The notes: generated from the sequence alone by a model not told the origin. Positions 532-36,462 are shown, counted from the stretch's first letter. The stretch is DNA of 64,000 bases from Candidatus Kaiserbacteria bacterium (GCA_023267655.1 JAHFMV010000001.1:95954-159953), one strand, 5' to 3'. Made by a program: numbers and translations.

Positions 532-1122
532 GTGATACTACGCGAAAGTGTGGTACAATACAACCCTATGACACTTCTCTATATCGTGCTGGGCATTATC
601 GCGGTCGTTATTTTGTGGATTATCTTTGGCTACAATCGGTTTGTCTCACTTACCAACCGCGTGAAAGAAGCGTGGTCGGACATCGATATCCAGCTCAAGC
701 GTAGATACGACCTCATCCCGAATCTCGTCGAGACTGTGAAAGGGTATGCAGGGCACGAAAGCAGCACGCTCGAAAAGGTGACTGAAATGCGCACGCGGGC
801 GATGAATGCAACCGCGCCGGCCGATAAAGCTGCTGCAGAAAATATGCTCTCGGGCGCGCTCAAATCGCTGTTTGCCGTTGCCGAAAATTATCCCGACCTC
901 AAGGCGAACACCAACTTTCTTGAATTGCAGCGCGAACTCTCCGACACTGAAAACAAAATCCAAGCTGCCCGCCGCTTCTATAATAGTGTCGTCCAAGACC
1001 TCCAGAACGCACTCCAGTCATTCCCGAGCAACCTGATAGGCAGCACGTTCGGCTTCCAACCGCGTGATTTCTTCCAGCTCGACAACGACGCGGCCAAAGA
1101 GCCAGTGAAGGTGCAATTCTGA
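532..1122 (+). CDS. lemA: LemA family protein
   Basis: N-terminal TM helix followed by the conserved LemA core (YNRFVSLTNRVKEAWSDIDIQLKRRYDLIPNLVETVKGYAGHE ... AENYPDLKANTNFLELQRELSDTENKIQAARRFYN). Confidence 0.8.
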   Translation: MILRESVVQYNPMTLLYIVLGIIAVVILWIIFGYNRFVSLTNRVKEAWSDIDIQLKRRYDLIPNLVETVKGYAGHESSTLEKVTEMRTRAMNATAPADKAAAENMLSGALKSLFAVAENYPDLKANTNFLELQRELSDTENKIQAARRFYNSVVQDLQNALQSFPSNLIGSTFGFQPRDFFQLDNDAAKEPVKVQF

Positions 1123-1125
1123 AAA

Positions 1126-1144
1126 GGGTATAGCCAATAGGGTA
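1126..1144. repeat. 19-bp inverted repeat (GGGTATAGCCAATAGGGTA) with partner at 1535-1553, bracketing the four-helix-bundle gene
   Basis: GGGTATAGCCAATAGGGTA at 1126-1144; its reverse complement TACCCTATTGGCTATACCC at ~1535-1553 is followed by a direct repeat of CTATACCCTAT. Confidence 0.6.
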
Positions 1145-1162
1145 TGGGGTTTAGGGAAATGC

Positions 1163-1522
1163 ATGGAATCCTATCGAGAACTCATTGTTTGGCAAAAGAG
1201 TAGAAGGTTTGTAGCCAATATTTATCGGTTGACCGACAAGTTTCCTAAATCAGAGATGTTCGGACTAACAAGTCAGATGCGTCGTGCAGCCGTATCGATT
1301 CCTGCAAACATTGCGGAGGGCTATTCTCGTAAACATCGTGCAGAATATGTACAATTTCTTCGAATTGCATATGGTTCAGGCGCAGAGCTTGAGACGTACT
1401 GCGGATTAAAGTCTGATTTGGGATATGTGACGAAAGAAAAATCTGCAGAGTTTGAAGAATTACTCGCTGAAATCATGCGGATGCTCAATAAACTCATTTC
1501 ATCCCTTGCAATCAAACAATAA
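1163..1522 (+). CDS. four-helix-bundle protein of the '23S rRNA intervening-sequence protein' family (PF05635/TIGR02436-like)
   Basis: 119 aa, all-helical, with family motifs (ELIVWQKS..., AVSIPANIAEGYSRKH, YGSGAELETY); sits between lemA and htpX bracketed by inverted repeats. Confidence 0.7.
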   Translation: MESYRELIVWQKSRRFVANIYRLTDKFPKSEMFGLTSQMRRAAVSIPANIAEGYSRKHRAEYVQFLRIAYGSGAELETYCGLKSDLGYVTKEKSAEFEELLAEIMRMLNKLISSLAIKQ

Positions 1523-1565
1523 CTTGCATTTCACCCTATTGGCTATACCCTATTCGCTATACCCT

Positions 1566-2468
1566 ATGTCGTCTTTGTATACACAGGAGAGTAAAAATGT
1601 GCGCAAAACCTGGCTCATGATGAGCGTCTTTTTAGTGCTTGTTATTGCGGTTGGTTGGGTGCTCGCGCAGTACTATGGCGATTCGTCGATTCTCTACATC
1701 GCGGTTGCGTTTTCTTTGATTTCAAACATCGGCGCATATTGGTTTTCGGACAAAGTTGCGATCGCGAGCGTCGGCGCGCATCCGGCAGATGAAAATGAGT
1801 ACAAAGAATTGCATCGCATCGTCGAAAACCTCGCTATTACCGCGGGCCTGCCAAAGCCGCGCGTCTATATCATTAACGATCCCGCGCCGAATGCGTTTGC
1901 AACGGGGCGCAACAAAGAGCACGCGGTCATTGCCGTCACGACTGGGCTCCTCGGAATGATGGATCGCTCGGAATTGGAAGGTGTCATCGCGCACGAACTC
2001 TCGCATGTGGGGAACCGCGACATCCTTGTCATGACCGTTGCGGTGGTCTTGGTCGGATTCATTTCCGTCCTCGCCAATATCGCACTGCGGATTTCATATT
2101 TTGGCGGGAATCGCGATCGCGAGAATAAAGCGGGACCACTTATCGCAATTGCCGCTATCGCGGCGATGATCCTAGCCCCTATTGCAGCGCAGCTCATCCA
2201 ACTCGCGATCTCGCGAAAACGGGAATTCCTCGCCGACGCTGACGGCGCACTCCTCACCCGGTATCCAGACGCCCTTGCATCCGCCCTCGCCAAAATCGGC
2301 TCGTACAGCGCACCTATGCAACGCGCCTCCACGACGACCGCACACCTGTTTATCTCGAACCCCTTCGGCGCGCATCCGGCAGGGCAGTGGATCGCGAAGC
2401 TTTTCTCCACGCATCCTCCGGTTGAAGAGCGCATCGCGGCTCTCGAAAGTATGCATTCAGAGCGATAG
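1566..2468 (+). CDS. htpX: zinc metalloprotease HtpX (peptidase M48)
   Basis: HEXXH motif (HELSHVGNRD) and TM segments typical of M48 HtpX; the ORF-track start at 1452 overlaps the upstream gene, so start trimmed to ATG 1566 (a GTG ~1597 with an AGGAGA RBS is also possible). Confidence 0.85.
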   Translation: MSSLYTQESKNVRKTWLMMSVFLVLVIAVGWVLAQYYGDSSILYIAVAFSLISNIGAYWFSDKVAIASVGAHPADENEYKELHRIVENLAITAGLPKPRVYIINDPAPNAFATGRNKEHAVIAVTTGLLGMMDRSELEGVIAHELSHVGNRDILVMTVAVVLVGFISVLANIALRISYFGGNRDRENKAGPLIAIAAIAAMILAPIAAQLIQLAISRKREFLADADGALLTRYPDALASALAKIGSYSAPMQRASTTTAHLFISNPFGAHPAGQWIAKLFSTHPPVEERIAALESMHSER

Positions 2469-2516
2469 GCGCCTATACCCCCGACTCGTCGATCGGAGAG
2501 TGACAGATATATGACA

Positions 2517-3086
2517 TCATTTGGATTTGAGTCGAAATGCGTGCCTCAAACGGGCATCATCCTGTATTTTTTCAAGGACACCATACAATACGTGTCGTGA
2601 TAACCGCGGGTCGTTTCTCAAGAGCCGAGACAGTTCCTCGCATTCATGCGGGAAAATCCAGGTGCTGTTTTGCAATTTGATAAATCCCGCTCGCTTCAAA
2701 ATTGTCCGAATTTCATCCCGCGCCTGGCGTAGCCTCTCCGGTATGTCAAAGGTTATTATGCGCCATTTGCCATCCCATTGCAGAGTATCTAATGTCGCAC
2801 GGATATTTTTTACCGTTCGCTCAATAAGAACTCGTCCCGTGTTTGTGATTGAAAGAATGTCGTCGCGCCGTTGAACATATCCCTCCCTCACGAGGCGATC
2901 TATCGCAAGTCGTGTTTTATACCTGCGTACGGCGCGTTCGCGCGCGATTTTATACATCAGTTTTGTTGAGCGCGCCGACATAAGAAACCCCATGAGCAAA
3001 TCTCCCGCAGTCAGCTGTTCCAAGACGTCTCTTTCGATTGCGCCGAGCCTGCCTCCGCGTCTTAATTTTTTATCACGATCCCGCAT
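2517..3086 (-). CDS. PaaX-like transcriptional regulator (winged helix plus Cas2-like PaaX C-terminal fold)
   Basis: C-terminal WDGKWRIITFDIPERLRQARDEIRTILKRAGFIKLQNSTWIFP matches the PaaX_C/Cas2-like fold; start trimmed to MRDRDKK because the longer ORF overlaps fba. Confidence 0.55.
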   Translation of the reverse strand: MRDRDKKLRRGGRLGAIERDVLEQLTAGDLLMGFLMSARSTKLMYKIARERAVRRYKTRLAIDRLVREGYVQRRDDILSITNTGRVLIERTVKNIRATLDTLQWDGKWRIITFDIPERLRQARDEIRTILKRAGFIKLQNSTWIFPHECEELSRLLRNDPRLSRHVLYGVLEKIQDDARLRHAFRLKSK

Positions 3087-3233
3087 AGACAAAGTATACC
3101 CCTCACTCGTCGGTCGGAGAGTGAGGGGTATATATTGTTGTGGACAGTGGAAGTACGAATAAAGAAACACAGAGGACGGCTGATGATTTTTTCTCGTACC
3201 TGTGTGTTTGTGGCGGCATGGTACTATTTCCGC

Positions 3234-4091
3234 ATGAAAACCTTGCGAGAAACAATTGCAGATGCGCGTGCCCGCAAAGTCGCGGTGGGGCATTTTAACG
3301 TATCTGATAGCAATCAATTTAATGCGATTGTTGCGGCAGCCGCGGAACTTGGCGTGCCGGTCATTATTGGTGCAACAGAAGGCGAGCAAAAATTCTTTGG
3401 CACGCATGAAGTCGCGGCGCTTGTACGCGCCGCACGCGAGAAAAAAGGACTCTCCGTCTACCTCAATTCCGACCACACCCGCACAATCGAAGGCATGAAG
3501 GCGGCCGTTGATGCAGGGTTTGATGCAGTACTTTTTGACGGCGCGAAAGAAACGATCGAGCACAATATCGAATTGGTAAAAGAAACGGTTGCCTATGCAA
3601 AAGCAGCAGGGCGCGAAGTGCTCGTTGAAGGCGAACTCGGCTACATTGGCTCATCTTCGCAAGTACATGCGGACATTCCCGAAGGCGCGGGACTCGATAT
3701 GACGACGCCGGAGCTTGCGACGCGATTCGTGCAAGAGACCGGTGTTGATCTTCTCGCGCCATCCGTCGGCAACATCCACGGACTTCTCAAAGGCCGGGCG
3801 AAACCAGCGCTCGACTTGCCACGTATCGAAGCGATCAGTAAGGCCGTCGGTATTCCGATGGTTCTCCACGGCGCGTCCGGCGAAACTGATGCTGATGTCC
3901 ACGGCGCGATAGAGCGCGGTATGGGCATCGTGCACGTCAATACCGAAATCCGCGTCGCCTACAAAGACGCCATCGCGAGAGGCCTTGCCGAAAACGCCGA
4001 AGACATCGCTCCATATAAATATATGCTTCCGGCGATGGAAGCCGTCAAACAAGTCGTCCTCAAGAAATTGAAGGTTTTCAACGGGCTCTAA
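3234..4091 (+). CDS. fba: fructose-bisphosphate aldolase, class II
   Basis: Class II FBA/tagatose-bisphosphate aldolase signature (VAVGHFNVSD ... GELGYIGSSS ... SVGNIHGL ... VLHGASG); start taken at MKTLRETI, exact start coordinate uncertain by a few nt. Confidence 0.85.
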   Translation: MKTLRETIADARARKVAVGHFNVSDSNQFNAIVAAAAELGVPVIIGATEGEQKFFGTHEVAALVRAAREKKGLSVYLNSDHTRTIEGMKAAVDAGFDAVLFDGAKETIEHNIELVKETVAYAKAAGREVLVEGELGYIGSSSQVHADIPEGAGLDMTTPELATRFVQETGVDLLAPSVGNIHGLLKGRAKPALDLPRIEAISKAVGIPMVLHGASGETDADVHGAIERGMGIVHVNTEIRVAYKDAIARGLAENAEDIAPYKYMLPAMEAVKQVVLKKLKVFNGL

Positions 4092-4132
4092 AGATTGAGA
4101 AAGAGCGATAAAAAGGCTATAAATAGGCGCAC

Positions 4133-4217
4133 GGAGGCGTCGCACAGTGGTCTAGTGCACCGCCTTGGAAAGGCGGCATGCCGCAAGGCATCGCGAGTTC
4201 GAATCCCGCCGCCTCCG
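4133..4217 (+). tRNA. tRNA-Ser (anticodon GGA)
   Basis: Cloverleaf read by eye: acceptor GGAGGCG/CGCCTCC, D-arm GCAC..GTGC, anticodon stem CCGCC/GGCGG with loop TTGGAAA (anticodon GGA), a long 17-nt variable arm, and a T-loop TTCGAAT; 85 nt. Confidence 0.7.
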
Positions 4218-4325
4218 CAACTAAAAGTTACTCACAGGCATTCGCGTCAACCGCTTTGCATAGGGTATTATTACCGTATTACTTACTAGAAGCTAAAAGC
4301 TAGACGCTCGCAGCTATTTAATACT

Positions 4326-4736
4326 ATGTTTGAAGTAACATTTCTTCCGATTCTTGTTGCCGGGATTGCCAACGTGATCCTCGGCATGGTGTGGTACAAC
4401 CCACGCGTCTTTGGTACTGCCTGGATGGCGAATATCGCAATGACGCCGGAGATGGCGGAAAAAGGCAAGAAGCGGATGCCGATCATGGCGCTTATTTCGT
4501 TTCTCGCGGCCATGGTAGTCGCGTATGTGATGGATTATTTTGGCATCGCGTGGGGCGTGTTTGACTGGATCGGTGCCGTTGAGTTGGGCTTCTGGTGCTG
4601 GGTTGGGTTTGTCGCACCAACGATGCTCGGGATGGTTCTCTGGGAGATGAAGCCGTTCAAATACTACGCGATTGTTAGTGGATACTGGCTGGTGTCATTC
4701 ATTATGATGGCAGTCATTCTCGTATTAATGGCGTAG
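4326..4736 (+). CDS. DUF1761-like small membrane protein
   Basis: 136 aa with four hydrophobic helices; pattern similar to the DUF1761 family. Confidence 0.55.
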   Translation: MFEVTFLPILVAGIANVILGMVWYNPRVFGTAWMANIAMTPEMAEKGKKRMPIMALISFLAAMVVAYVMDYFGIAWGVFDWIGAVELGFWCWVGFVAPTMLGMVLWEMKPFKYYAIVSGYWLVSFIMMAVILVLMA

Positions 4737-4876
4737 TTGTCTAAACGCTCAAATTTGGCGCATTTCGTCGTTGCGGAGCCTCTGCGTCTCCTTCGTCGTA
4801 TCTAGGATACGCCTCAGGAGCCGCTTTCTCCACGCCTAGAACTGCATCCAAATTTGAACGTTATTGGTAGTGCATT

Positions 4877-5353
4877 ATGGTGTCTTTGCACAAGAAAATT
4901 CTCATAGGAATGGTGATTATTCTGGCTGCCGCGCTGCTTTTATTTTTCATATTTTCGAAACCTGCTCATCCTGCGGCAGGTCTCACTCTGCACCCGACGC
5001 AGACCATTTCAATTGCAGGGACACCGCTGCATATTGCGCTCGCGACTACCGACGCCGAGCGCGAGCAGGGCCTAAGCGGCATCACCAGCCTTGCAGAAGA
5101 CCAAGGCATGCTCTTTGTATTCCCGAAAGACGGCATCTATTCGTTTTGGATGAAAGACATGCTTTTTTCCATCGACATGCTTTGGGTCTCTCAAGATGGT
5201 CGTGTTGTATACATCGTCCCGTCGTCCTCGCCCGCGACCTACCCCCATGCGTTCACGCCAAATACACCGGCGAGGTATGTCCTCGAAGTACCCGCGGGCT
5301 TCGCAACAGAGCACGAAATCGGGGTGGGGAGCAAATTGGATTTTTCGCTCTGA
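4877..5353 (+). CDS. DUF192 (COG1430) domain protein, secreted or membrane-anchored
   Basis: N-terminal TM/signal segment; core LHIALATTDAEREQGL...MLFVF...SFWMKDMLFSIDMLWVSQDGRVV matches the DUF192 fold. Confidence 0.65.
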   Translation: MVSLHKKILIGMVIILAAALLLFFIFSKPAHPAAGLTLHPTQTISIAGTPLHIALATTDAEREQGLSGITSLAEDQGMLFVFPKDGIYSFWMKDMLFSIDMLWVSQDGRVVYIVPSSSPATYPHAFTPNTPARYVLEVPAGFATEHEIGVGSKLDFSL

Positions 5354-10115: not shown

Positions 10116-10484
10116 TTAGACCTTCTTGATTTGGAGGCCGGGGATTTTCTTGAAATCGCGGACATTGCGGGTAAAAAGGGTTGCTCGTGCCGCGAGAGCT
10201 GTCGCAGCGACAACGCTATCGCCGAGGGACATACTGTAATCACGACGCAGGATGCCCGCTGCTTGCGCCAGATCAGCGTCGAGCTTTACGACGAGAGTCG
10301 AGTTGAGAAATGATTCGATTTTTTGCATCTCTGTCTGCGATGTTTTTGTTGAACTCCAAAGCTCGGTGATTACGATCGAGGGAACAATGATGATTTCGTC
10401 AGCGAGAATAGAGGAGAGAATTGCCAAGGCTTCACGATCGTCATTAACGTAGTAGACGATCGCATTGGTATCGAGTACGTACAT
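10116..10484 (-). CDS. vapC: PIN-domain ribonuclease toxin VapC
   Basis: Starts MYVLDTNAIVYY (the conserved Asp); PIN acidic residues present; short, and sits downstream of a small antitoxin ORF. Confidence 0.8.
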   Translation of the reverse strand: MYVLDTNAIVYYVNDDREALAILSSILADEIIIVPSIVITELWSSTKTSQTEMQKIESFLNSTLVVKLDADLAQAAGILRRDYSMSLGDSVVAATALAARATLFTRNVRDFKKIPGLQIKKV

Positions 10485-10491
10485 GTCGCAC

Positions 10492-10647
10492 TTAACGATC
10501 CCAAGATTTACGCGCCTGGCGCATTTCGCGCAGGATCGCTTTGCCGCGCGCGCCTTTCCACATGCCTTTTATGCGCGCCAATGCTGCTCGCCGTGCCACG
10601 AGATCAGCCTTTGTCGGCTTTGGGATTTTGATGACAGGCATGTTCAT
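10492..10647 (-). CDS. vapB: putative VapB-type antitoxin (52 aa)
   Basis: Hand-translated minus-strand ORF MNMPVIKIPKPTKADLVARRAALARIKGMWKGARGKAILREMRQARKSWDR; its stop lies 7 nt upstream of the vapC ATG. Confidence 0.5.
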   Translation of the reverse strand: MNMPVIKIPKPTKADLVARRAALARIKGMWKGARGKAILREMRQARKSWDR

Positions 10648-12310: not shown

Positions 12311-12318
12311 TGACATAT

Positions 12319-12634
12319 CTGCACATTAAGCCGGATTCTGTCGAGAGCAGCCATTTATCTGGGATGAGTGTTGCCACTCACCTCAAGCGGTTCTCCGTTC
12401 AGTTTTTAGGCTGGACGACACGACCTTGCACGTAGATAGGAAATTTAGCCGTTGCACCCGGTATGTTTCCATACCGATTGATCCTTGCGGATCCCTTTGT
12501 CTCTCGACGCGGGCGTCACTGTTCGCATCCCTAGGATTACCCCGGCGGGCGTTACCCGCTACCGTCCTGCACCGTAAGGTGCACGTGTCCGGACTTTCCT
12601 CTCAATCTTTCGAAAGAGCGACTGCTTAATGCAG
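12319..12634 (-). ncRNA. rnpB: RNase P RNA (bacterial type A-like, compact)
   Basis: The minus strand contains GAGGAAAGTCCGGAC (P4 5' strand), CGGGTAACGCCCG, GGGTGCAACGG and ACAGAATCCGGCTTA (P4 3' strand); a P1 pairing CTGCATTAAG/CTTAATGTGCAG closes the molecule; the ORFs called in this interval are spurious. Confidence 0.75.
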
Positions 12635-12707
12635 AAAAGTACTATACCATTTTTCTCCACAGTGCGCGAGCGCTTGAGATTTTTTCGAGCATGCTACAAT
12701 TTCCGGA

Positions 12708-29752: not shown

Positions 29753-30487
29753 TTAATGATTCCAGAAGTGAACCCAGAAGTTGCCACGGAACCAGCCGCG
29801 CATCCAGCCATTTCCACCGTCGTGATCGTCATCTTTGTGACTCTTTGTCGTTGAAGCGACATCGACAGCCGTCGCGCTGAAGATTGTCGATGATGCATTG
29901 AACATGCCCATCAAGCGAACTTTTGCGTTGAGGAAGAGGTCAGCAAATCCGCCTGTCTTGCCATTAACCGAGAACTTTGTCGAACTACCGGTCTGCACTG
30001 AAGTCGTGGCATTACCGTTCACAACCGTGAACGAATTCAGCGATGTGTTAATCGCGCTGACAGTTCCCTCAATGTGTGCCTTCGCTTGCGTCTTTGACCA
30101 ATCTTTCACCGCCTTCGCTTTTACCGTGAGGCCGCTGACTGACTGATCGATCGCACCGCGAAACGAGATCACATCACCGACCGCGATATTCGCAAGTCCT
30201 GATACGCCGCCCTTCGCAGCGAATTCAGTGTTGCCGTCGGTCTTCACGAGCCAGTTCATAACAGATGAACCAAACGACGTGTTCGCGCTAACATCCGAAC
30301 CGGAAACTGCCGTGACCTTTGCACCTTCTACTTGTGCATTTCCACCGGCACCGATGTGGACATCAATCCCCGGAAGGGAATCCGCATGCGCCATGCCCGC
30401 AAAGGCAAGGATCGTGAGAGCGGAAAGAGCCCCCACAACCATCGAGCTAAGAACGAGAGGAGTAAGAGAGAAACCATGTGTTTTTTG
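29753..30487 (-). CDS. secreted Gly/Thr/Ser-rich protein with signal peptide (DUF5666-like), upstream of the ECF sigma
   Basis: Signal peptide (MQKTHGFSLTPLVLSSMVVGALSALTILAFAGMAHA), beta-rich repeats, and a His/Trp-rich C-terminus (HKDDDHDGGNGWMRGWFRGNFWVHFWNH). Confidence 0.5.
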   Translation of the reverse strand, partial: QKTHGFSLTPLVLSSMVVGALSALTILAFAGMAHADSLPGIDVHIGAGGNAQVEGAKVTAVSGSDVSANTSFGSSVMNWLVKTDGNTEFAAKGGVSGLANIAVGDVISFRGAIDQSVSGLTVKAKAVKDWSKTQAKAHIEGTVSAINTSLNSFTVVNGNATTSVQTGSSTKFSVNGKTGGFADLFLNAKVRLMGMFNASSTIFSATAVDVASTTKSHKDDDHDGGNGWMRGWFRGNFWVHFWNH

Positions 30488-30704
30488 CATAGGTTTGAGA
30501 GCCAATTATGACTAATGTCGTACGGTGGCTCTCGTATATGAAGACGAAGTAGGGCACCACGGACTTTCCTTGACAATTTATCGTAGATTCGTCATAGTAA
30601 ATCTACTATCGAGCGTTTCGGTAGTCTCGGACATAGGGCTCAGCCTTCGGCAAACGAGTACCGCACCGAGCGTTCTTCATCAGGTCAACGACGGAGAGTG
30701 TCAC

Positions 30705-31835
30705 ATGACCGTTAGGATCCCTATCCGTATCCTCGATGCAAACATCCGCAAGTCGACATCGAACAAGGAGCGGACCATCTTGCGAGGCGTCATTCATCCG
30801 GAGAGTCTCAGTGCTCTCCAGGTGGACGACTATCAACGTGAGGCGCAGCAGCCATCGTCGCTCATGAGTATTATTGAGGCCCTTGAAGAGGGCGAACCGC
30901 TTCAGAATCTGGATCTCGGAATGCGCGGTGAAAAGTATCAGATCCGCGACGGCATCTTTTATCTGCAGGACCCGACGTTCATCATCGACGGTCTGCAGCG
31001 CGTGACGGCGACCAAGCTGTTCATGGCGGATAATCCTGACGTGCCGCCTGCGTATTTGGGCGTGACCATCTACTTCAATACCACTCACGAGTGGGAGAGG
31101 GAGATGTTCATCACCGTCAACACCAGGCGACGCCGCGTATCCCCCGACAAGATTATGTTCAATCGCCGCGAGACAAGCGAGGGTGTGGGCATGCTGTACA
31201 AGCTCTGCAGTGATCCCAAGTTTGCACTTCAGGATAAGGTGGCATGGTCGCAGAACAAGGGCAGTAAGTTTGTGGGGGCTTTCAGCCTTTGCAAACTCAT
31301 GTGCGTCCTGCATGTTCACAAGGTCAACGGCCTGTCGAACGACAAGGATGTCGTTTGTGCGCATCTCGATCGCATCTTGGGCGACGTGGGCGTCGGAGTC
31401 ATGCGCGATAATGTGCGGCTGTTCTTCGATCTGATCGACAGCACCTGGGGGTTGAGGAACCTCCAACACTACCAGAAGGCGCCACACATTAAGTTCGGAT
31501 TCCTCTTCGTCTTCGCGCGTTTCCTCTCGGATCACACCGAGTTTTGGAGGAGCGACGACAAGCGGTTGTTCGTGGATATGCCGCTCCGAAAGGCGTTGCA
31601 CAAGTTCAATGTGCACGAACCGATCCATGCGAACCTCTGCGGTGCGTCGGGCAAGGCGCTTGATCAGCTCTACGACTACCTCGTCGATGACTTCAACAAG
31701 GGCAAGCGTGGAAAGCGTCTGCGTCCCCGTCATGCGCACTTCGTGAGCATGGCCAGCAAGGATATGGCGTCCGGCGCAATCGATCCTTCCGATCCGTCGC
31801 AGGAGGATTTGCCTCCGGCCGAGGCAGCTGAATAG
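30705..31835 (+). CDS. ParB/Srx-fold DGQHR/DUF262-like (DndB-like) protein
   Basis: Paired YQRE...(IIDGLQRVTATKLF) motifs match the DUF262 DGQQR and DndB DGQHR signatures; a downstream F..VNTRRRRVSPDKIMF region resembles the DGQHR-domain continuation; GGAGAG RBS upstream; the ORF track started earlier but was trimmed to MTVRIP. Confidence 0.55.
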   Translation: MTVRIPIRILDANIRKSTSNKERTILRGVIHPESLSALQVDDYQREAQQPSSLMSIIEALEEGEPLQNLDLGMRGEKYQIRDGIFYLQDPTFIIDGLQRVTATKLFMADNPDVPPAYLGVTIYFNTTHEWEREMFITVNTRRRRVSPDKIMFNRRETSEGVGMLYKLCSDPKFALQDKVAWSQNKGSKFVGAFSLCKLMCVLHVHKVNGLSNDKDVVCAHLDRILGDVGVGVMRDNVRLFFDLIDSTWGLRNLQHYQKAPHIKFGFLFVFARFLSDHTEFWRSDDKRLFVDMPLRKALHKFNVHEPIHANLCGASGKALDQLYDYLVDDFNKGKRGKRLRPRHAHFVSMASKDMASGAIDPSDPSQEDLPPAEAAE

Positions 31836-31962
31836 TCGTGACCGAATAGCAAATAAGAGGGGCTGTCCTTGTGATGGCCCCTTTACTTTTTAATGTTGTA
31901 TGGTATTTTGAGATTGGACTGCACCTTGACATAGGCTCTAACGCAACAGAAGGTCCCTGACG

Positions 31963-33471
31963 ATGCCTAACCTCACCATAACCTGCGAGCAGCAAACACT
32001 GCGACCCATTATCCCTGGCCTCGAAAAGCATATAACGCGCCTTGCGGCGCATATCAAACTCGAGTGCGAACTTGTCCTCACTCCAGTCGAAGCGAGGAAA
32101 AGCGGTGCACACACGCAAGGTCTCCATACTCAAGCCTACGAGCAGAATGATGCCGAACCGGCGGTCTTGCTCCTCTATCAGTCATCCGAAGACAACTGCT
32201 GGCTCTGGCGACTGCGTTTTCCGAGCGGCACCGATGCCCAGTTGATGTATGGACGTCTTGGTATTGCGATCGAAAAGGGTCAACACCTTGTGGACGCGAA
32301 AAAGATGAATGGCCATGCAGGTCACATCTCGCCTGCAAGCTCAGCATTGTTCAGTGACGAGCAACTCGCAACATCGGCAAAAGCTATGGAACGTTCCGTG
32401 GGTCAGGGTGAGATAGCGAACCTCATCGTCGTCGAACTCCGCAACGGTCTTGGTAAAGACCAGGTGGAGTTCAGTGAAGCATATGCGCTCTCGCGGTTGC
32501 TACGCGCTGATTCCCACTACAAAGGGGACACGGCTCGTGTTGTGTTGCGAGCAATTACCAATCGCTTGTTGGTAAATAGCAGTCCTGAAAGCGGAATGTA
32601 CCGTTTTGGCGCACGAGGTAATGAAATCCTTCAGGCATATGACCTCGAACAAGCGCGTCAGAAAGCTCAGGAAGATGCAGAAGCTGCTGAGGCGCGCAGA
32701 CGCGCTTCGACTGTTTCTCCTGCACGCATCAAGTCGCCTGATTGGGTTGACGATGAGTCTCCCGACGATCAGGAGGCGTCATTACAACGGGCGTCAATGT
32801 TTACGCAAAATCCTGACAATGTGGCGCTCTCCCTGCGTTTCATCTGTAGCCACGGAGATTGGTCAACAGATGCTGCGCCCGTGCTTCGACGCGGACATGC
32901 ACTCGACAAAATCGTTCAATGCTCTCGAGAAACCTTGAGCAGACGAGATGCCGGTCGCGTACTCAAGACGTTCTCCAGGCGTGGGTATTTCGAGTATTAC
33001 AATGAGGGTGACCTCATCCAAATCAATCCAGCCGGTATCGCAATGGCTCGTTCCTGCAGGATTGGTGACGTTCCCGCTTGGGCAAGACCTTTTCGGGGGG
33101 ACGCGGCACAGATCAATGTCAAAGAGAAGACGCCCGCGACTCGGGCAGAGCCTGTTCGAGCCCATTCTACGCCGGTCGTTGAAGCTGCAGAGGTCACTAC
33201 GCCAAAGGTCGGACCGGACTATATCCGCGATCTTACCGCTCGTGTGGCAAAATTCGATGCCGCGACAAAGGTCGTCGAGACCGCAGAAAAAAGAATCGGC
33301 GAGATTAACCAGGAGCTCTCGGAATTGGAAACCAAAACAGCGATTCTGAAGGCAGAGCGACAGAGTCTCGCGACGAGTCTGGTCGAGTCGAGAGTAACGG
33401 TGGCGGACTCGCAATATCAGCAAGCCGTAGAAGAGCTGAAAAGCATCAGAGCGATGCTCGAGTTGAAATAG
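31963..33471 (+). CDS. hypothetical 502-aa protein with C-terminal coiled coil, no recognisable domain
   Basis: Long unique ORF in the same orientation, downstream of the DGQHR-like gene; C-terminal heptad-like segment (EINQELSELETKTAILKAERQSL). Confidence 0.5.
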   Translation: MPNLTITCEQQTLRPIIPGLEKHITRLAAHIKLECELVLTPVEARKSGAHTQGLHTQAYEQNDAEPAVLLLYQSSEDNCWLWRLRFPSGTDAQLMYGRLGIAIEKGQHLVDAKKMNGHAGHISPASSALFSDEQLATSAKAMERSVGQGEIANLIVVELRNGLGKDQVEFSEAYALSRLLRADSHYKGDTARVVLRAITNRLLVNSSPESGMYRFGARGNEILQAYDLEQARQKAQEDAEAAEARRRASTVSPARIKSPDWVDDESPDDQEASLQRASMFTQNPDNVALSLRFICSHGDWSTDAAPVLRRGHALDKIVQCSRETLSRRDAGRVLKTFSRRGYFEYYNEGDLIQINPAGIAMARSCRIGDVPAWARPFRGDAAQINVKEKTPATRAEPVRAHSTPVVEAAEVTTPKVGPDYIRDLTARVAKFDAATKVVETAEKRIGEINQELSELETKTAILKAERQSLATSLVESRVTVADSQYQQAVEELKSIRAMLELK

Positions 33472-33583
33472 ATTGAAACGGGGTGGTCTCGCGCAGACCA
33501 CCCTTTTTTTGTTTGATAAACGATGGTAATCGTAGTACTATGTCGTCGGACTCGCAGTCACACTGAATCGGAAAGGTCGTATC

Positions 33584-34345
33584 ATGGAACCGGCACTAGA
33601 TCTCACGCGTGGCACTGCAAAGGAGTGTCTTGCACATTACTTTGCGACAGAGTGGAATGGGCACTCACGAATTGCTCTCGCACATCTTGCGGGGTGCCAC
33701 ATCAAGTCAGTAGGGGGATGGTCTCGAGGTACGACTATTCCTAAAGGTGAAAACCTTTTGCGTGTCACGCACTACCTTGCACTCCTTGGCTATAGTGTCG
33801 TCGAACTCGACCGCATAGACCTCGACGTTCGGCGCCTTGGCCAGATGATTCTGCTCGGGATTCGCACGATACATGATCTGGCGGATACGTTGGAGTATAG
33901 TGGCACCACCGTCGCTGAGCGGCACAGTGAGTTATATCGGATTCTTTTGCGCGGTGGTGGTATGACCGCAAAACGTGCGCAGCAGGTAAAAATACTCGTA
34001 TCCGAGCACGCTGGTACACTTGAGTCTGCGCTCGCCGAATTCGAAAAAAAACGACCGCGTGTTCGAAATCAGTCACCCACATTTCCGCCAGGGCTTTCTC
34101 CGGGTCAAGGCACGTCGCCGAGGAGAATTCCAACGCAGGTGAAAGTGCAGGGGAGCACTGCACGTGATGAAGCGAGCAACAATGTTCAGGTGAGCATCGC
34201 GGCCGGACTTGTTCAATCGCTTTTACAACATGTGCAGCGCTTCGCGAATCACGATAAGCAGCATCTAGAGGCATTTCGCAAGCGCTCGCCAGAAATGCGC
34301 GAGCTCGGAGAATATTTGCTAGCTATTGCTTCGAAGACGATCTGA
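33584..34345 (+). CDS. hypothetical protein with N-terminal HTH-like segment
   Basis: IALAHLAGCHIKSVGGWSRGTTIPKGENLLRVTHYL resembles an XRE-type HTH; the rest is unrecognised. Confidence 0.45.
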   Translation: MEPALDLTRGTAKECLAHYFATEWNGHSRIALAHLAGCHIKSVGGWSRGTTIPKGENLLRVTHYLALLGYSVVELDRIDLDVRRLGQMILLGIRTIHDLADTLEYSGTTVAERHSELYRILLRGGGMTAKRAQQVKILVSEHAGTLESALAEFEKKRPRVRNQSPTFPPGLSPGQGTSPRRIPTQVKVQGSTARDEASNNVQVSIAAGLVQSLLQHVQRFANHDKQHLEAFRKRSPEMRELGEYLLAIASKTI

Positions 34346-34430
34346 TGCAGAGGCGGGGCCACATCGGTCCCGCCGTTTCACTTTTCATATAAATGTGGTA
34401 CTATATTTCCGGGTAGCAAGCGAGGATGTG

Positions 34431-34580
34431 ATGGTACAGCGTAGACGAAGATCGCGACGTAAGAAGTATCTTCAACCACTAGCAACCGCGAGCGTGTTGC
34501 TCTCAAAAACGAAACGGCAAGTCTTTTGGGCGGCAGTATATGTTGCCGAGTGCAGACGTCTTTTGAGGAGGAAACAATGA
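34431..34580 (+). CDS. small Arg-rich ORF (49 aa), speculative
   Basis: GAGGATG RBS; MVQRRRRSRRKKYLQ...; followed directly by a GGGCCGATCGAACGGCCCTTTT terminator. Confidence 0.2.
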   Translation: MVQRRRRSRRKKYLQPLATASVLLSKTKRQVFWAAVYVAECRRLLRRKQ

Positions 34581-34600
34581 GGGCCGATCGAACGGCCCTT
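34578..34600 (+). terminator. rho-independent terminator
   Basis: GGGCCGATCGAACGGCCC followed by TTTTATATTT. Confidence 0.55.
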
Positions 34601-35028
34601 TTATATTTCCTCCGCCTCGAAATTGGCGAATTCGACGTTTTAACAACAAGTTAATGCGCCGAGAGGCCGCAGTGCTTTGCACTTGCGGCCTCTCGGCTTA
34701 TTCGATACGTGGCGTGCTCTCTGGCTCTGCCGCGACGAGTAGATGATGTGCATCCATACGCTTTTTGTTACCTTTTTAACACTAGGCTTCTGCGCTTGCT
34801 CGAGGGAGCAGCGCGAAGAACAGCATCTCTGTGCACATTCTAAAATTGTGCCGGTGAAGCATGTATGAATTCATCGTGCACCAACAGCTCGGACAGACGC
34901 GTATAAATAATTGCCACGGCGATGAAATAAATGTCGAGGCTTCCAAGTTCTAGGCACTTGGAAAAACCAAAAGACGCACCAACGTGCGTCTTTTTGGCGT
35001 ATAGTAGGGAGACGCTCACGCGCCCGCT

Positions 35029-35613
35029 TTGCCTATGTCCCTCACCGATTCTGAACTCGTGCTTTCCTATCGGGAAGGCGATGACCAGGCGTTTGAATCA
35101 TTGATTGCGCGGCACACCGATGCGATCTTCGCATATCTCGCGCGGCTCACGGGAGATCGGGAAGTCGCCGCCGATCTTACCCAAGAGACATTTGTGAAAG
35201 CGTGGAAAAATCTTGCCCGATTTCGAGAGAGCGAAAATTTTAAAACATGGGCCTTCACGATCGCACGCAATTCGGCATACGATTGGTTGCGCAAAAAGAA
35301 ATCGGTTGTCTTCTCGGCACTGGATGGTGAAGAATTTTCATTTGCGGACACGATCGCGGATACCGAGCCGCTCGCAGACGAGGTCCGGATCCGTTTCGAA
35401 GACGCGCATTTTCTTGAAAAACTTCTCACCGGCCTTCCCGCCGATTCGCGCGAAATCTTGCTCCTCCATTATGTCGACGAGATGACGTTCGATGAAATAG
35501 GCCGGGTGCGAGGGGAGCCTTTGAATACGGTAAAGAGCCGCCATAGGCGCGCCCTCATTGCACTTCGCGAACAGGCCGCGGGCACCAAAGGGAGCCCCAA
35601 TGACGTACAATAG
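35029..35613 (+). CDS. ECF-type RNA polymerase sigma-70 factor
   Basis: Region 2 (DLTQETFVKAWKN) and region 4 (MTFDEIGRVRGEPLNTVKSRHRRAL). Confidence 0.85.
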   Translation: MPMSLTDSELVLSYREGDDQAFESLIARHTDAIFAYLARLTGDREVAADLTQETFVKAWKNLARFRESENFKTWAFTIARNSAYDWLRKKKSVVFSALDGEEFSFADTIADTEPLADEVRIRFEDAHFLEKLLTGLPADSREILLLHYVDEMTFDEIGRVRGEPLNTVKSRHRRALIALREQAAGTKGSPNDVQ

Positions 35614-36016
35614 ATGTATGACCGATTTCCGGCAGATTTTTCATAAGCTCCGCCCGCTCATCGCTCCGATGGGTCTCAAGGCGGCTATTGTGGCGCGGAT
35701 TCGATTCGAAGAGCGCCGCGTTGCGCGCCGTGCAGTTTTCATTACGACGCCGATCCTCGCCTTGTCGTTTGCAGGACTCGCATGGGGCGTGACATCCGCG
35801 GCAACGTCTCTCGCGCATTCATCGCTCGGGCAATATCTCTCGCTCGCGGTTTCCGATCCGATGTCGGTCGCTGCGCTCTGGCAATCGTTCTCGCTCACGA
35901 TCATTGAATCATTGCCGATCTTCGCGCTTACGATTATCATCGGCGCACTGGTGGCGCTTCTTGCGTCTGCATTTGTCGCTGCGCATAACGTAAAGCGGGC
36001 GTTTTCTTTTGCATGA
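35600..36016 (+). CDS. membrane protein, candidate anti-sigma factor
   Basis: Start overlaps the sigma stop; two TM helices; position typical of a cognate anti-sigma. Confidence 0.4.
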   Translation: MTYNRCMTDFRQIFHKLRPLIAPMGLKAAIVARIRFEERRVARRAVFITTPILALSFAGLAWGVTSAATSLAHSSLGQYLSLAVSDPMSVAALWQSFSLTIIESLPIFALTIIIGALVALLASAFVAAHNVKRAFSFA

Positions 36017-36462
36017 TCGAAGAAATTTTCAAAAAAGGAGGTTGGCAGCGGACGACGCTCTACACACTCGCGGCGCTGTTTGTCGCACTTCTCATTTTCC
36101 AAACCGGCATGTTCACCGGCGAGCGTCGCGCAGCCTTTACCTACGGCACCGGCGCCGCGTACTACAATGTCTTTGAACATCCCGAACATGGGCCTGCACA
36201 GCGCGGGTTTTTTGGGGATGCACATGGCGCGGCCGGACAGATCATCAGCCTTTCGCTTCCGACATTTGTCGTGAAGAGTCCTGATAATACGGAAAAAGTA
36301 ATTCTCATCGGCGATGCAACGGAAATCCGCCGTTTCCACGATGCGGCAACTTCGACCGACCTTGCCCCCGATGATTTTGTCGTCGTCATAGGAGAGCCGA
36401 ATAGCGACGCGCAAATTGACGCAAAACTCATTCGCATTTTGCCGCCTCCGCCAGAGCGATAA
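36013..36462 (+). CDS. membrane-anchored hypothetical protein
   Basis: 149 aa, N-terminal TM helix, ATGA overlap with the previous gene. Confidence 0.4.
   Translation: MIEEIFKKGGWQRTTLYTLAALFVALLIFQTGMFTGERRAAFTYGTGAAYYNVFEHPEHGPAQRGFFGDAHGAAGQIISLSLPTFVVKSPDNTEKVILIGDATEIRRFHDAATSTDLAPDDFVVVIGEPNSDAQIDAKLIRILPPPPER

Follow-up and report, generated by a model that had tools for sequence, protein, structure and literature searches.

Three genes on the plus strand of a 64,000-nt stretch of a Candidatus Kaiserbacteria genome (GCA_023267655.1, JAHFMV010000001.1:95954-159953; hereafter the window) combine a protein that appears from its sequence to found a new subfamily of ParB/DUF262-type proteins (g1), a conserved structured RNA in the leader of its gene, and two partner genes (g2 and g3) that match no described family, as had been noted for both. 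A functional link among the three genes is supported, since each pairwise adjacency is seen again in independent genomes. Our tentatively preferred reading is a polymorphic module derived from mobile elements, in which a nucleotide-gated DNA-binding protein would work with helix-turn-helix partners and whose role could be surveillance or regulation. The ORFs g1 (30705..31835, 376 aa), g2 (31963..33471, 502 aa) and g3 (33584..34345, 253 aa), together with a promoter-like site, an inverted repeat and hairpins, lie where the initial annotation had placed them.

The start of g1 at ATG 30705 was supported by an alignment of 30 homologs. A public protein, P0001 (436 aa), has the same length as the ORF that opens at GTG 30525, a start that would run across the promoter and the leader RNA. 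The g1 protein carries YQRE at residues 43-46 and DGLQR at residues 95-99, and Q44, R45, D95, G96, Q98, R99, F135 and N139 are invariant among the 30 homologs. These residues match three motifs described for DUF262/DGQHR proteins (PMC4619093, PMC12065111), which in DUF262 read QRxxxW, DGxQR and FxxxN (PMC12065111). In the same alignment, motif I is YQREAxP, with the QR pair present and the tryptophan of QRxxxW absent, while DGxQR and FxxxN are invariant; the pentapeptide is DG(L/Q)QR, in which the histidine position of DGQHR is always glutamine. Conservation of the family is strong, with about 40% identity across classes and 28 invariant columns. The AlphaFold2 model of g1 (mean pLDDT 85) showed a ParB/Srx fold, with ParB-N, PadC, KorB and Noc as the closest structural matches. 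Seven helices were predicted for residues 192-331 in the C-terminal domain, and a structural match of this part to a ParBDB-type domain was not obtained.

The best sequence-profile match of g1 was TIGR03187 (DGQHR; 24.8 bits against a cut-off of 58.85, E = 1.6e-5), and PF03235 (DUF262/GmrSD_N) gave 21.2 bits against a gathering cut-off of 33.2 (E = 3.6e-4). These two matches are weak but specific. PF14072 (DndB) scored 12.9 bits with a cut-off of 29.1, the DpdB model gave E = 0.18, and PHROG matches were negligible. Because g1 stays below every curated DGQHR, DndB and DUF262 cut-off, it is best placed in a subfamily of its own. The earlier description of g1 as a DGQHR/DUF262-like ParB-fold protein thus holds for the fold and for the QR and DGxQR motifs, but not for membership of any curated family.

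Between the promoter and g1, a structured 5′ leader RNA (30604..30674, plus strand) was found. Its three helices pair 30606-30612 with 30618-30624 (H1), 30626-30630 with 30666-30670 (H2), and 30636-30642 with 30655-30662 (H3), and the internal loops keep the stretches CAUA(A/G)G and AC(U/C)GCA. Given a plain MAFFT alignment, RNAalifold predicted 18 pairs, of which 9 show compensatory changes; in the covariation count such changes were seen in 15 of 19 pairs, and 93.6% of cells were paired versus 70.7% in shuffles, none of 500 shuffles being as high. All matches of the covariance model built from the leader (R2) lay upstream of g1 genes. Among 4227 Rfam covariance models, none matched anywhere in the window at the gathering score, and none matched 30540-30730 at E ≤ 10. 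The g1 leader is a conserved structured RNA that had not been described before. It had been missed by the initial annotation.

A scan placed a sigma-70-like promoter at 30570..30598 (plus strand, TTGACA-17-CATAGT); six loci of the g2 clade conserve both its TTGAC element and a -10-like hexamer. An inverted repeat (30583..30606, GTAGATT-N10-AATCTAC), which occurs once in the window and overlaps the -10 region, had been read as an autoregulatory operator. When the 160 nt upstream of g1 were shuffled, 12% of the shuffled sequences had an equally good repeat (p about 0.12), which means that the repeat is not significant by itself. Moreover, it is not conserved in a related genome, L001, which also lacks g3, and g1 genes linked to g3 showed no enrichment of repeats in their upstream regions. 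The autoregulatory reading is therefore not sustained, and the repeat is a possible candidate for a g3 operator. Terminator-like hairpins on the plus strand lie in the g1/g2 gap (31856..31884, also in L001), after g2 with a T-run (33480..33504, by scan) and after g3 (34352..34374, with an L001 counterpart that comes after g2). A further promoter-like site, TTGATA-17-TACTAT, stands upstream of g3 (33513..33541, plus strand). With a terminator-like hairpin for each gene and a promoter-like site for g3, a single g1-g2-g3 operon is doubtful.

The g2 protein has an N-terminal alpha/beta domain at about residues 1-110 and a long C-terminal helix at 418-501, and its central stretch exceeds that of its homologs by about 150 aa; read by eye, this stretch forms two winged-helix-like segments. 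The long helix weakly matched coiled-coil and SMC-type (JetC, LmuB) models. Of the C-terminal coiled coil claimed for g2, the long terminal helix stands, and the structure model has a mean pLDDT of 49 and is unreliable. Only 10 relatives of g2 were found among 1.84 billion representative proteins. In the g3 family, about 150 N-terminal residues are conserved, and the C-terminus is variable, differing with the type of partner. The XRE-like helix-turn-helix proposed for g3 was recovered as a weak signal at residues ~19-63 (best E about 0.003-0.03), and the N-terminus bears a weak resemblance to antitoxins of the HigA type and to repressors of phages. No nuclease domain was detected in g1, g2 or g3; g2 and g3 also showed no protease, NADase, membrane-disrupting or toxin domain, and no ATPase or inactive-PIN domain.

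The exact trio occurs in this window only, and each gene pair recurs elsewhere. A g1-g2 succession is present in eight genomes, and outside the window a g2-like gene has g1 immediately upstream in L001, L003, L072, L180, L181, L182 and L183. A g3-like gene follows g1 in about 25 loci; in 14 genome loci it is immediately downstream, and where starts could be placed they overlap or abut the g1 end (gaps of -20 to +2 bp). In the loci examined, g2-like and g3-like genes near g1 were always immediately downstream and on the same strand, and never elsewhere within the ~10 kb flanks. When g3 loci were retrieved independently of g1, 11 of 49 showed g1 followed by g3. On the other hand, the g3-like genes in the remaining 38 of 49 loci do not adjoin g1, most Patescibacteria g1 homologs stand alone with housekeeping neighbours only, and the window's g1 falls in the g2 clade, outside the g3-linked clade; all three observations count against a module. 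The housekeeping-only surroundings of most Patescibacteria g1 genes also mean that the partners are not obligatory. The proposal that the three genes form one system is thus upheld for the pairwise adjacencies, not for the trio as such.

Components of these loci are swapped between genomes. g2 and g3 are found together again in one genome, L184, where a GHKL ATPase (HATPase_c_3, E = 2e-12) replaces g1 and the gene order is m0, g3-like, GHKL ATPase, g2-like. This is the orthologous site, since the DUF5666 genes of L184 and the window share 50% identity. The exchange of g1 for a GHKL protein was seen at this single locus. A g3-m0-m1 arrangement is common, with m0 at about 30 and m1 at at least 22 of 49 g3 loci, and g3-like genes lie beside m1, a second, putatively ParB-like protein, more often than beside g1. 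For m1, a ParB fold is no more than a suggestion (sulfiredoxin E = 0.076, ParB E = 0.32), and its comparison with g1 was not significant. The m1 profile also matches the ParB_N-plus-HTH gene found ahead of g1-like genes in acidobacterial elements.

The surroundings of the locus were compared with the claim that an island had been inserted between two ECF-sigma modules. The right module was confirmed in the window, with an ECF sigma gene at 35029-35613 and a DUF5666-like gene at 36013-36462. For the left one, the third gene (29753-30505), the only gene of that module scanned in the window, gave a below-cut-off DUF5666 match, and a sigma module is suggested by synteny with L001 genes carrying DUF5667, ECF sigma and DUF5666 domains. 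The GC content of the region, 0.53-0.55, falls within the range of its flanks (0.51-0.58), and base composition thus gives no hint of an island. Two related genomes, L001 and L184, have variants of the module at this same junction on the left, beside the orthologous DUF5666 gene. Insertion between the two sigma modules is thus not borne out. The 600-bp stretch downstream of g3 does contain hairpins (34579-34600 and 34653-34702), but it is not wholly non-coding, since it includes, at 34431..34580 on the plus strand, a short basic ORF (49 aa, MVQRRRRSRRKKY...) that has a promoter-like TGTGGTACTATA element of its own and, in the hairpin 34579-34600, its own terminator. This ORF has no Pfam match and also comes directly after g2 in L001.

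The g1 subfamily comprises at least 350 clusters from Patescibacteria, acidobacterial mobile elements and phage contigs. Its genomic position varies between genomes and its distribution appears patchy. In Acidobacteria, g1-like genes lie within a replication/recombination module that holds the ParB_N-HTH gene, a PD-(D/E)XK nuclease, an AAA_24 ATPase, a RecD-like helicase and a primase/VapE gene; the adjacent nuclease was found only in these relatives. On 40 IMG/VR contigs, g1 homologs neighbour RecT, ERF, YqaJ, RusA, SSB, MT-A70, GcrA, terminase and portal genes. Such company, with recombination, RusA, SSB, helicase, primase and methyltransferase genes, is that of the 'ParB-like' genes of phages and mobile elements; what sets g1 apart is that 50,697 deposited phage genomes contained no match to it. 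No phage genes were seen near g1 in the window or in most Patescibacteria genomes.

Under the reading we prefer, the module would probably be of mobile-element descent, with the window locus as one variant. By analogy with DndB, GmrSD/BrxU, SspE, NsnA and ParB, g1 may bind a nucleoside triphosphate at DGxQR, which would gate DNA binding or dimerisation, and it would act, through putative protein-protein contacts, with lineage-specific partners that look DNA-binding. Among these, g3 may be an adaptor or regulator, and g2 a dimeric bridging or scaffold protein in a narrow clade of Paceibacteria. The KorB-KorA pair joins a CTP-gated clamp to a small helix-turn-helix partner, and the pairing of g1 with g3 is similar, as an analogy only; g1 belongs to another sequence family than KorB, ParB and Noc. 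The nucleotide-binding head seems interchangeable, being g1, a ParB_N-plus-HTH protein or a GHKL ATPase; the task that is conserved would accordingly be to clamp or sense DNA in a nucleotide-dependent way. The leader RNA in the 5′ UTR would control g1 expression. The output would most likely be surveillance, silencing or regulation of DNA, possibly foreign, rather than restriction, because no nuclease or toxin was found in the window.

True anti-phage defence, in which g1 would sense foreign or modified DNA as DUF262-type proteins do in GmrSD, SspE or NsnA, and g2 or g3 would be a novel effector or transducer, appears unlikely. Known DUF262/DGQHR proteins mostly serve defence or DNA-modification systems (PMC12065111, PMC4619093), and the swapping of partners and of the nucleotide-binding component (g1, m1, GHKL ATPase), the different cassettes at one chromosomal site, the carriage of homologs by phages and the weak resemblance of the L184 GHKL protein to TmtA of the Tiamat system would all fit. 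DndB and DpdB share with g1 the fold, the QR pair, a DG-x-x-R pentapeptide, FxxxN and a stand-alone layout of ~360 aa with a helical C-terminal domain; GmrSD, BrxU, SspE and NsnA share DGxQR and FxxxN, and NsnA and DndB likewise place a ParB-like domain before an all-helical one (PMC12065111). However, g1 falls far below the DGQHR and DndB cut-offs and below that of GmrSD_N, and it has DG(L/Q)QR where DGQHR is nearly invariant in the DGQHR family (PMC4619093). Among the annotated neighbours of g1, in the window and the annotated loci, no dnd (including dndCDE) or dpd genes were seen. A DUF1524/HNH nuclease is neither fused nor adjacent to g1, unlike in GmrSD, BrxU and SspE, and, unlike in Menshen, neither the NsnB ABC ATPase nor NsnC is beside it. 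PADLOC models for these four do not match here, and its other matches were weak, with no complete known system. The window contains neither a nuclease nor a DNA-modification gene nor any known defence gene, g2 and g3 lack effector-type domains, and g1 genes are often solitary, among housekeeping genes rather than defence islands. The defence or modification context first proposed is thus not supported.

It is quite improbable that g1 and its analogues are housekeeping ParB-like clamps that organise or partition the small chromosome of Patescibacteria, with g2 and g3 as accessory DNA-binding proteins. The closest structural matches of g1, its strong conservation, its housekeeping neighbours, the dedicated leader RNA, which implies tight dosage control, and the weak coiled-coil/SMC-type matches of g2 point this way. 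Yet the GERRxRA CTP box of canonical ParB is absent from the 30-homolog alignment, no ParA gene was seen among annotated g1 neighbours, and no ParA-type ATPase is among the 25 Pfam families commonest immediately downstream of g1. The shifting position and patchy distribution of g1, its phage and mobile-element homologs and the rarity of g2 also argue against this role. We likewise give a low probability to three independent accessory genes that merely adjoin, each with its own promoter and terminator, as the hairpin after each gene, the g3 promoter-like site, the unique trio, the missing g3 of L001 and the separate occurrence of most g1 and g3-like genes would allow; the strict downstream, same-strand placement near g1 (~25 loci for g3-like genes), the reunion of g2 and g3 in L184 and the pairing of g3-like genes with a second putative ParB-like family speak against it. 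A toxin-antitoxin or abortive infection pair, in which a growth-arresting ParB/Srx-fold g1 enzyme is neutralised by g3, which represses its own promoter, is highly improbable: stop and start codons of g1 and g3 overlap in Saccharimonadia loci, g3 has its weakly HigA- and repressor-like N-terminus, and the repeat overlies the window promoter and is missing with g3 from L001, but g2 and two terminator-like hairpins separate g1 from g3 in the window, many g1 genes have no such partner, repeats are not enriched at g3-linked g1 genes, and we know of no toxin of ParB/DUF262 fold.

Returning to the mobile-element-derived module, a bolder form of it, which we regard as doubtful, is that these loci may represent an unrecognised polymorphic conflict system for DNA surveillance in Patescibacteria and their phages. 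An interchangeable nucleotide-gated clamp (ParB-DUF262, ParB_N-HTH or GHKL ATPase) would there be joined to an XRE-type adaptor and sometimes to a long-helix scaffold, and would be switched on or off by a leader RNA of a new class, riboswitch-like or protein-binding.

The three co-oriented + strand genes of the initial annotation, g1 (30705-31835, 376 aa), g2 (31963-33471, 502 aa) and g3 (33584-34345, 253 aa), were recovered exactly as described there. The public protein for g1 (P0001) is 436 aa long, which equals the length of an open reading frame beginning at GTG 30525, and translation from that codon would read across both a promoter-like site (TTGACA-17-CATAGT, 30570-30598) upstream of g1 and a leader RNA (30604-30674). 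Because of these two elements and an alignment of 30 homologs, ATG 30705 was preferred, indicating that the deposited start is probably too far upstream by 180 nt; the new start would thus be a correction to the public annotation. The Shine-Dalgarno sequence of g1, GGAG, lies at 30693-30696. A separate terminator-like hairpin comes after every gene (31856-31884 for g1, 33480-33504 for g2 and 34352-34374 for g3), and g3 has its own promoter-like site (33513-33541). Therefore, it is doubtful that the three genes form one operon.

The hairpins previously noted downstream of the trio are real. A small basic ORF of 49 aa (MVQRRRRSRRKKYLQPL..., 34431-34580, + strand) was found in this stretch, equipped with a promoter-like TGTGGTACTATA element and a terminator (34579-34600) of its own. 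It gave no Pfam match, and a homolog lies directly after g2 in L001, a syntenic relative (10288-10551, phmmer E = 3e-7). This ORF may be part of the module or an unrelated small gene. A strong hairpin with 19-nt arms (34653-34702) was observed in the spacer ahead of the second ECF sigma gene, and another strong one (34969-34994), with perfect 11-nt arms between A- and T-runs, looks like a bidirectional terminator. A known RNA within 34346-35028 was rejected, Rfam matches there being sub-threshold and terminator-like only.

The region had also been read as an island inserted between two ECF sigma modules. The GC content was 0.53-0.55 inside the region versus 0.51-0.58 outside, so the composition shows no sign of an island. 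On the right, scanning the window bore out the ECF sigma gene and a DUF5666-like gene. The left module was inferred via L001, where DUF5667, ECF sigma and DUF5666 domains are found in the corresponding genes; in the window, only the third gene of this module was scanned, and its DUF5666 match was sub-threshold. Ordinary housekeeping RNAs, namely a class A RNase P RNA (12311-12638, - strand, 121.5 bits) and a tRNA-Ser(GGA) (4133-4218, + strand), confirm the window as chromosomal.

The g1 protein was compared with curated models and scored below every stated cut-off: TIGR03187 DGQHR (E = 1.6e-5, 24.8 bits versus 58.85), PF03235 GmrSD_N (E = 3.6e-4, 21.2 bits versus 33.2), PF14072 DndB (E = 0.056, 12.9 bits versus 29.1) and the NCBIfam DpdB model (E = 0.18, 10.7 bits versus 300); the PADLOC DpdB model, which gives no cut-off, yielded E = 0.045 and 10.6 bits. 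The g1 family comprises at least 350 clusters of proteins of about 360 aa, all unnamed, and its few source-labelled matches are Patescibacteria metagenome-assembled genomes. Invariant residues of the alignment include Y43-Q44-R45-E46, M73-R74-G75, D95-G96-x-Q98-R99, E131, F135 and N139, and they correspond to QR, DGxQR and FxxxN, the defining motifs of the DGQHR and DUF262 domains (PMC4619093; PMC12065111). The motifs are not identical to either type, since g1 lacks the tryptophan of the DUF262 QRxxxW motif and its family carries DG(L/Q)QR instead of DGQHR.

Structural matches of g1 were pNOB8 ParB-N (9.0), PadC (8.7), KorB (7.0), two sulfiredoxin entries (6.9 and 6.2), SerK (5.3), SbnI (5.2), BrxU (5.0) and SspE (4.8). 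With Foldseek, the best 13 matches were all of the ParB family (ParB, Noc, PadC) or BrxU, all at E > 0.001, and the g1 family profile found nothing among PDB sequences. No match was found for a helical domain formed by residues 192-331, which could be a 'ParBDB' DNA-binding domain, judging by analogy from NsnA and DndB. Thus g1 has a ParB/Srx fold with the motifs of the DUF262/DGQHR branch, and the earlier ParB-fold reading holds for fold and motifs but not for membership in the curated DGQHR, DndB or GmrSD_N families. Being outside every curated family, g1 represents a new subfamily. The partner network matched nothing in the libraries used, which were Pfam, NCBIfam, PADLOC and PHROGs for the three proteins of the window.

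Several defence and DNA-modification systems use ParB/DUF262-fold proteins as sensors gated by nucleotides, and on this ground a defence system whose effector has escaped recognition was considered. No nuclease, toxin or modification enzyme was found in the window, which favours surveillance, silencing or regulation; the defence reading is unlikely.

The distribution of g1 was surveyed on one genome per species, and 80 loci were returned, mostly from Patescibacteria of several classes, with about 15 from Acidobacteria. In Patescibacteria, the flanks of g1 vary between genomes and consist mainly of housekeeping genes, those just 3′ of g1 including IleRS, AlaRS, ClpB, MiaA, YchF, S15 and GatC. 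In Acidobacteria, g1-like genes lie within a mobile-element replication/recombination module composed of a sigma-like gene, a ParB_N-plus-HTH gene, the g1-like gene, a PD-(D/E)XK nuclease (Cas4-like), an AAA_24 ATPase, a RecD2-like helicase and a DnaG-primase/VapE gene. This mobile-element/prophage module is conserved in Bryobacterales and Solibacter (L062:8575-18632, L060-L076, L103, L109-L113, L126). Homologs of g1 were also present on 40 IMG/VR contigs, where the neighbours include GcrA, MT-A70 methyltransferases, HNH, RecT, ERF, YqaJ, RusA, SSB, terminase and portal genes, indicating that these contigs are true phages; a tblastn search with g1 against 50,697 deposited phage genomes gave no match. 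In a neighbour-joining tree of g1, viral and Patescibacteria sequences were intermixed. A housekeeping nucleoid or segregation factor, a reading to which the ParB fold and the housekeeping flanks would lend themselves and the phage and mobile-element relatives would not, is rather improbable.

Partners of g1 were identified by local HMM searches over all fetched loci. A g3-like gene lies immediately 3′ of g1 in 14 genome loci, with a spacing of -20 to +2 bp (overlapping or abutting) where the start could be placed. A word-indexed homolog search for g3 returned the query itself and one short relative. In the reverse test, a hand-built IUPAC pattern of the conserved g3 core, checked locally, was run on the metagenome collection and gave true g3-like genes in 49 of 52 loci. 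Among these 49, g1 was directly 5′ of the g3-like gene in 11, and two further families occurred beside g3-like genes, m0 (about 85 aa) in about 30 and m1 (about 270 aa) in at least 22, usually in the order g3-m0-m1. The g3-like/m0/m1 trio recurs with housekeeping flanks on Patescibacteria-like contigs (L129:6-1848, L138, L134, L151 and about 20 other metagenome loci). The conserved pattern of m0 is ...GPYAVA...TFSL...WQE...PEPG...RAGWRA..., and m1 has a DGRHR motif, an HTH and weak sulfiredoxin and ParB matches; representatives of both families had no convincing Pfam or PADLOC match. Acidobacterial ParB_N-plus-HTH genes preceding g1-like genes are likewise hit by the m1 profile (E about 1e-5). 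No significant similarity emerged when m1 was compared with g1. In alignment A8 of the m1 family, the HTH-repeat region (profile positions 109-188) matches PDB 8vd6, 'CAP REPEAT' (E = 6e-10).

The XRE-like HTH proposed for g3 is present as a weak signal (g3 versus DicA, E = 0.025; g3 family profile versus the P22 C2 repressor, E = 0.026; HTH_3 in 4 of 15 family members). The g1-linked g3-like genes that are complete on their contig match nearly the whole g3 profile, and the m0/m1-linked ones mostly match its first two-thirds or so, typically to positions 150-180 of 240 with a few extending further, a difference partly expected from a profile built on g1-linked sequences.

For g2, which is rare, a word-indexed homolog search returned the query alone, and 1.84 billion representative proteins contain only 10 relatives of its N-terminal domain. 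The conserved N-terminal domain is followed by a central stretch that exceeds its counterpart in homologs by about 150 aa and, read by eye, resembles two winged-helix-like segments, and by a long C-terminal helix (residues 418-501). The AlphaFold2 model built from the g2 sequence alone was too poor to use (mean pLDDT 49), and profile-profile comparison of the downstream partner families g2, g3 and PD-(D/E)XK nuclease detected no relationship among them. Outside the window, g1 is immediately 5′ of g2 in seven loci (L001, L003, L072, L180, L181, L182 and L183). In L001, g1 is 67% identical to that of the window and has the same left flank, and it is followed by g2 and the small basic ORF without g3. 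In another locus, L184, the module (929-4904) adjoins the orthologous DUF5666 gene (50% identity) and consists of m0, a g3-like gene (29% identity to g3), a GHKL ATPase and a g2-like gene, in that order. The ATPase (560 aa, HATPase_c_3, PF13589, E = 2e-12, weakly TmtA-like) takes the place of g1, with g2 and g3 together again. The nucleotide-binding 'head' can be exchanged, and different cassette variants are found at a single chromosomal site. The trio had been proposed as a system; the exact trio is unique to the window, but all of its gene pairs recur. That these are unrelated neighbouring genes, a reading that the unique trio would allow and the recurring pairs speak against, has a similarly low probability to the housekeeping reading. 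A toxin-antitoxin-like pair, suggested by the tight g1/g3-like spacing and opposed by the position of g2 between g1 and g3 in the window, is very improbable.

An inverted repeat, GTAGATT-N10-AATCTAC (30583-30606), occurs once in the window and had been interpreted as an autoregulated operator. The repeat is present, but it is not conserved in L001 and is not significant alone (p about 0.12). As a general g3 operator it was rejected, repeats being no commoner upstream of g3-linked g1 (mean z 0.41) than of other g1 genes (0.82). L001 has neither the repeat nor g3, and this joint absence, a single comparison, is compatible with a g3 operator.

The 5′ UTR of g1 (30604-30674) is a newly found, conserved structured RNA. 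For six loci of the window's clade in a plain MAFFT alignment, RNAalifold gave a structure of three helices, with compensatory changes at 9 of its 18 pairs; 93.4% of cells pair versus 76.6% in shuffles (0/500 as high), and sliding the partners lowers this to 37-44%. The covariance model of this leader (R2) matched nine more loci outside the seed set (E 2.5e-5 to 0.048), all on the + strand and ending about 40-65 nt 5′ of the g1 match, and had no other match on either strand of the roughly 2.45 Mb covered. In the resulting 15-sequence alignment, 93.6% of cells pair versus 70.7% in shuffles (0/500) and 15 of 19 pairs have compensatory changes, this alignment being fitted to R2 and so biased towards the structure. 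Hardly any variation is seen in two internal-loop stretches, CAUAAG and ACUGC. Greater conservation of the upstream region than of the coding sequence was rejected (plain identity 68-71% versus 68%); the signal is base-pair covariation. Rfam gave no match to this leader at E <= 10.

A different, longer candidate leader with four stems (about 120 nt) lies ahead of g1 in the g3-linked, Saccharimonadia-type clade (L039:9809-9923, with equivalents in L047, L052, L053, L054, L040, L059, L086, L050, L170, L023 and L079). Its model, R1, matched solely upstream of g1 genes and was rejected for the window (-0.8 bits). Among 14 sequences, 90.1% of cells pair (shuffles, 70.1%), and in the model-fitted alignment compensatory changes are seen at 24 of 28 pairs. 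RNAalifold predicted no structure from a loose MAFFT alignment, and a hand-specified seed structure with covariance-model realignment was needed. No Rfam match was found for the long leader, so that neither leader RNA has an Rfam counterpart. In L054, a LOOT RNA (RF03000, 58.3 bits, 491-617) lies several kb 5′ of the g1-g3 pair and is probably unrelated to it.

With the g1 fold and motifs, recurring adjacencies, component swapping, phage/mobile-element relatives and RNA structure observed here, the reading that we tentatively favour is a module that descends from mobile elements and acts in DNA surveillance, silencing or regulation. In such a module, g1 would bind NTP at DGxQR and thereby control its contact with DNA, in the manner of other ParB/DUF262 proteins; g3 would be an HTH adaptor or regulator, g2 a dimeric scaffold, and the leader RNA would set g1 dosage. 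In its mode of action g1 may thus resemble DndB, NsnA, other DUF262 sensors and the ParB/KorB clamps, although score cut-offs, exact motifs and partner genes place it outside the DndB, NsnA, DUF262, ParB and KorB families.

To our knowledge, very little has been described of gene regulation in the lineage of the window, and the two leader RNAs, strongly supported by covariation and found only upstream of g1 genes, are candidate new cis-regulatory RNAs. The swapping of partners, and even of the nucleotide-binding component, narrows the possible conserved job of the module. The g1 proteins define a new branch, of at least 350 clusters, in a superfamily that is well studied, captured by no curated model and common to Patescibacteria, acidobacterial mobile elements and uncultivated phages.
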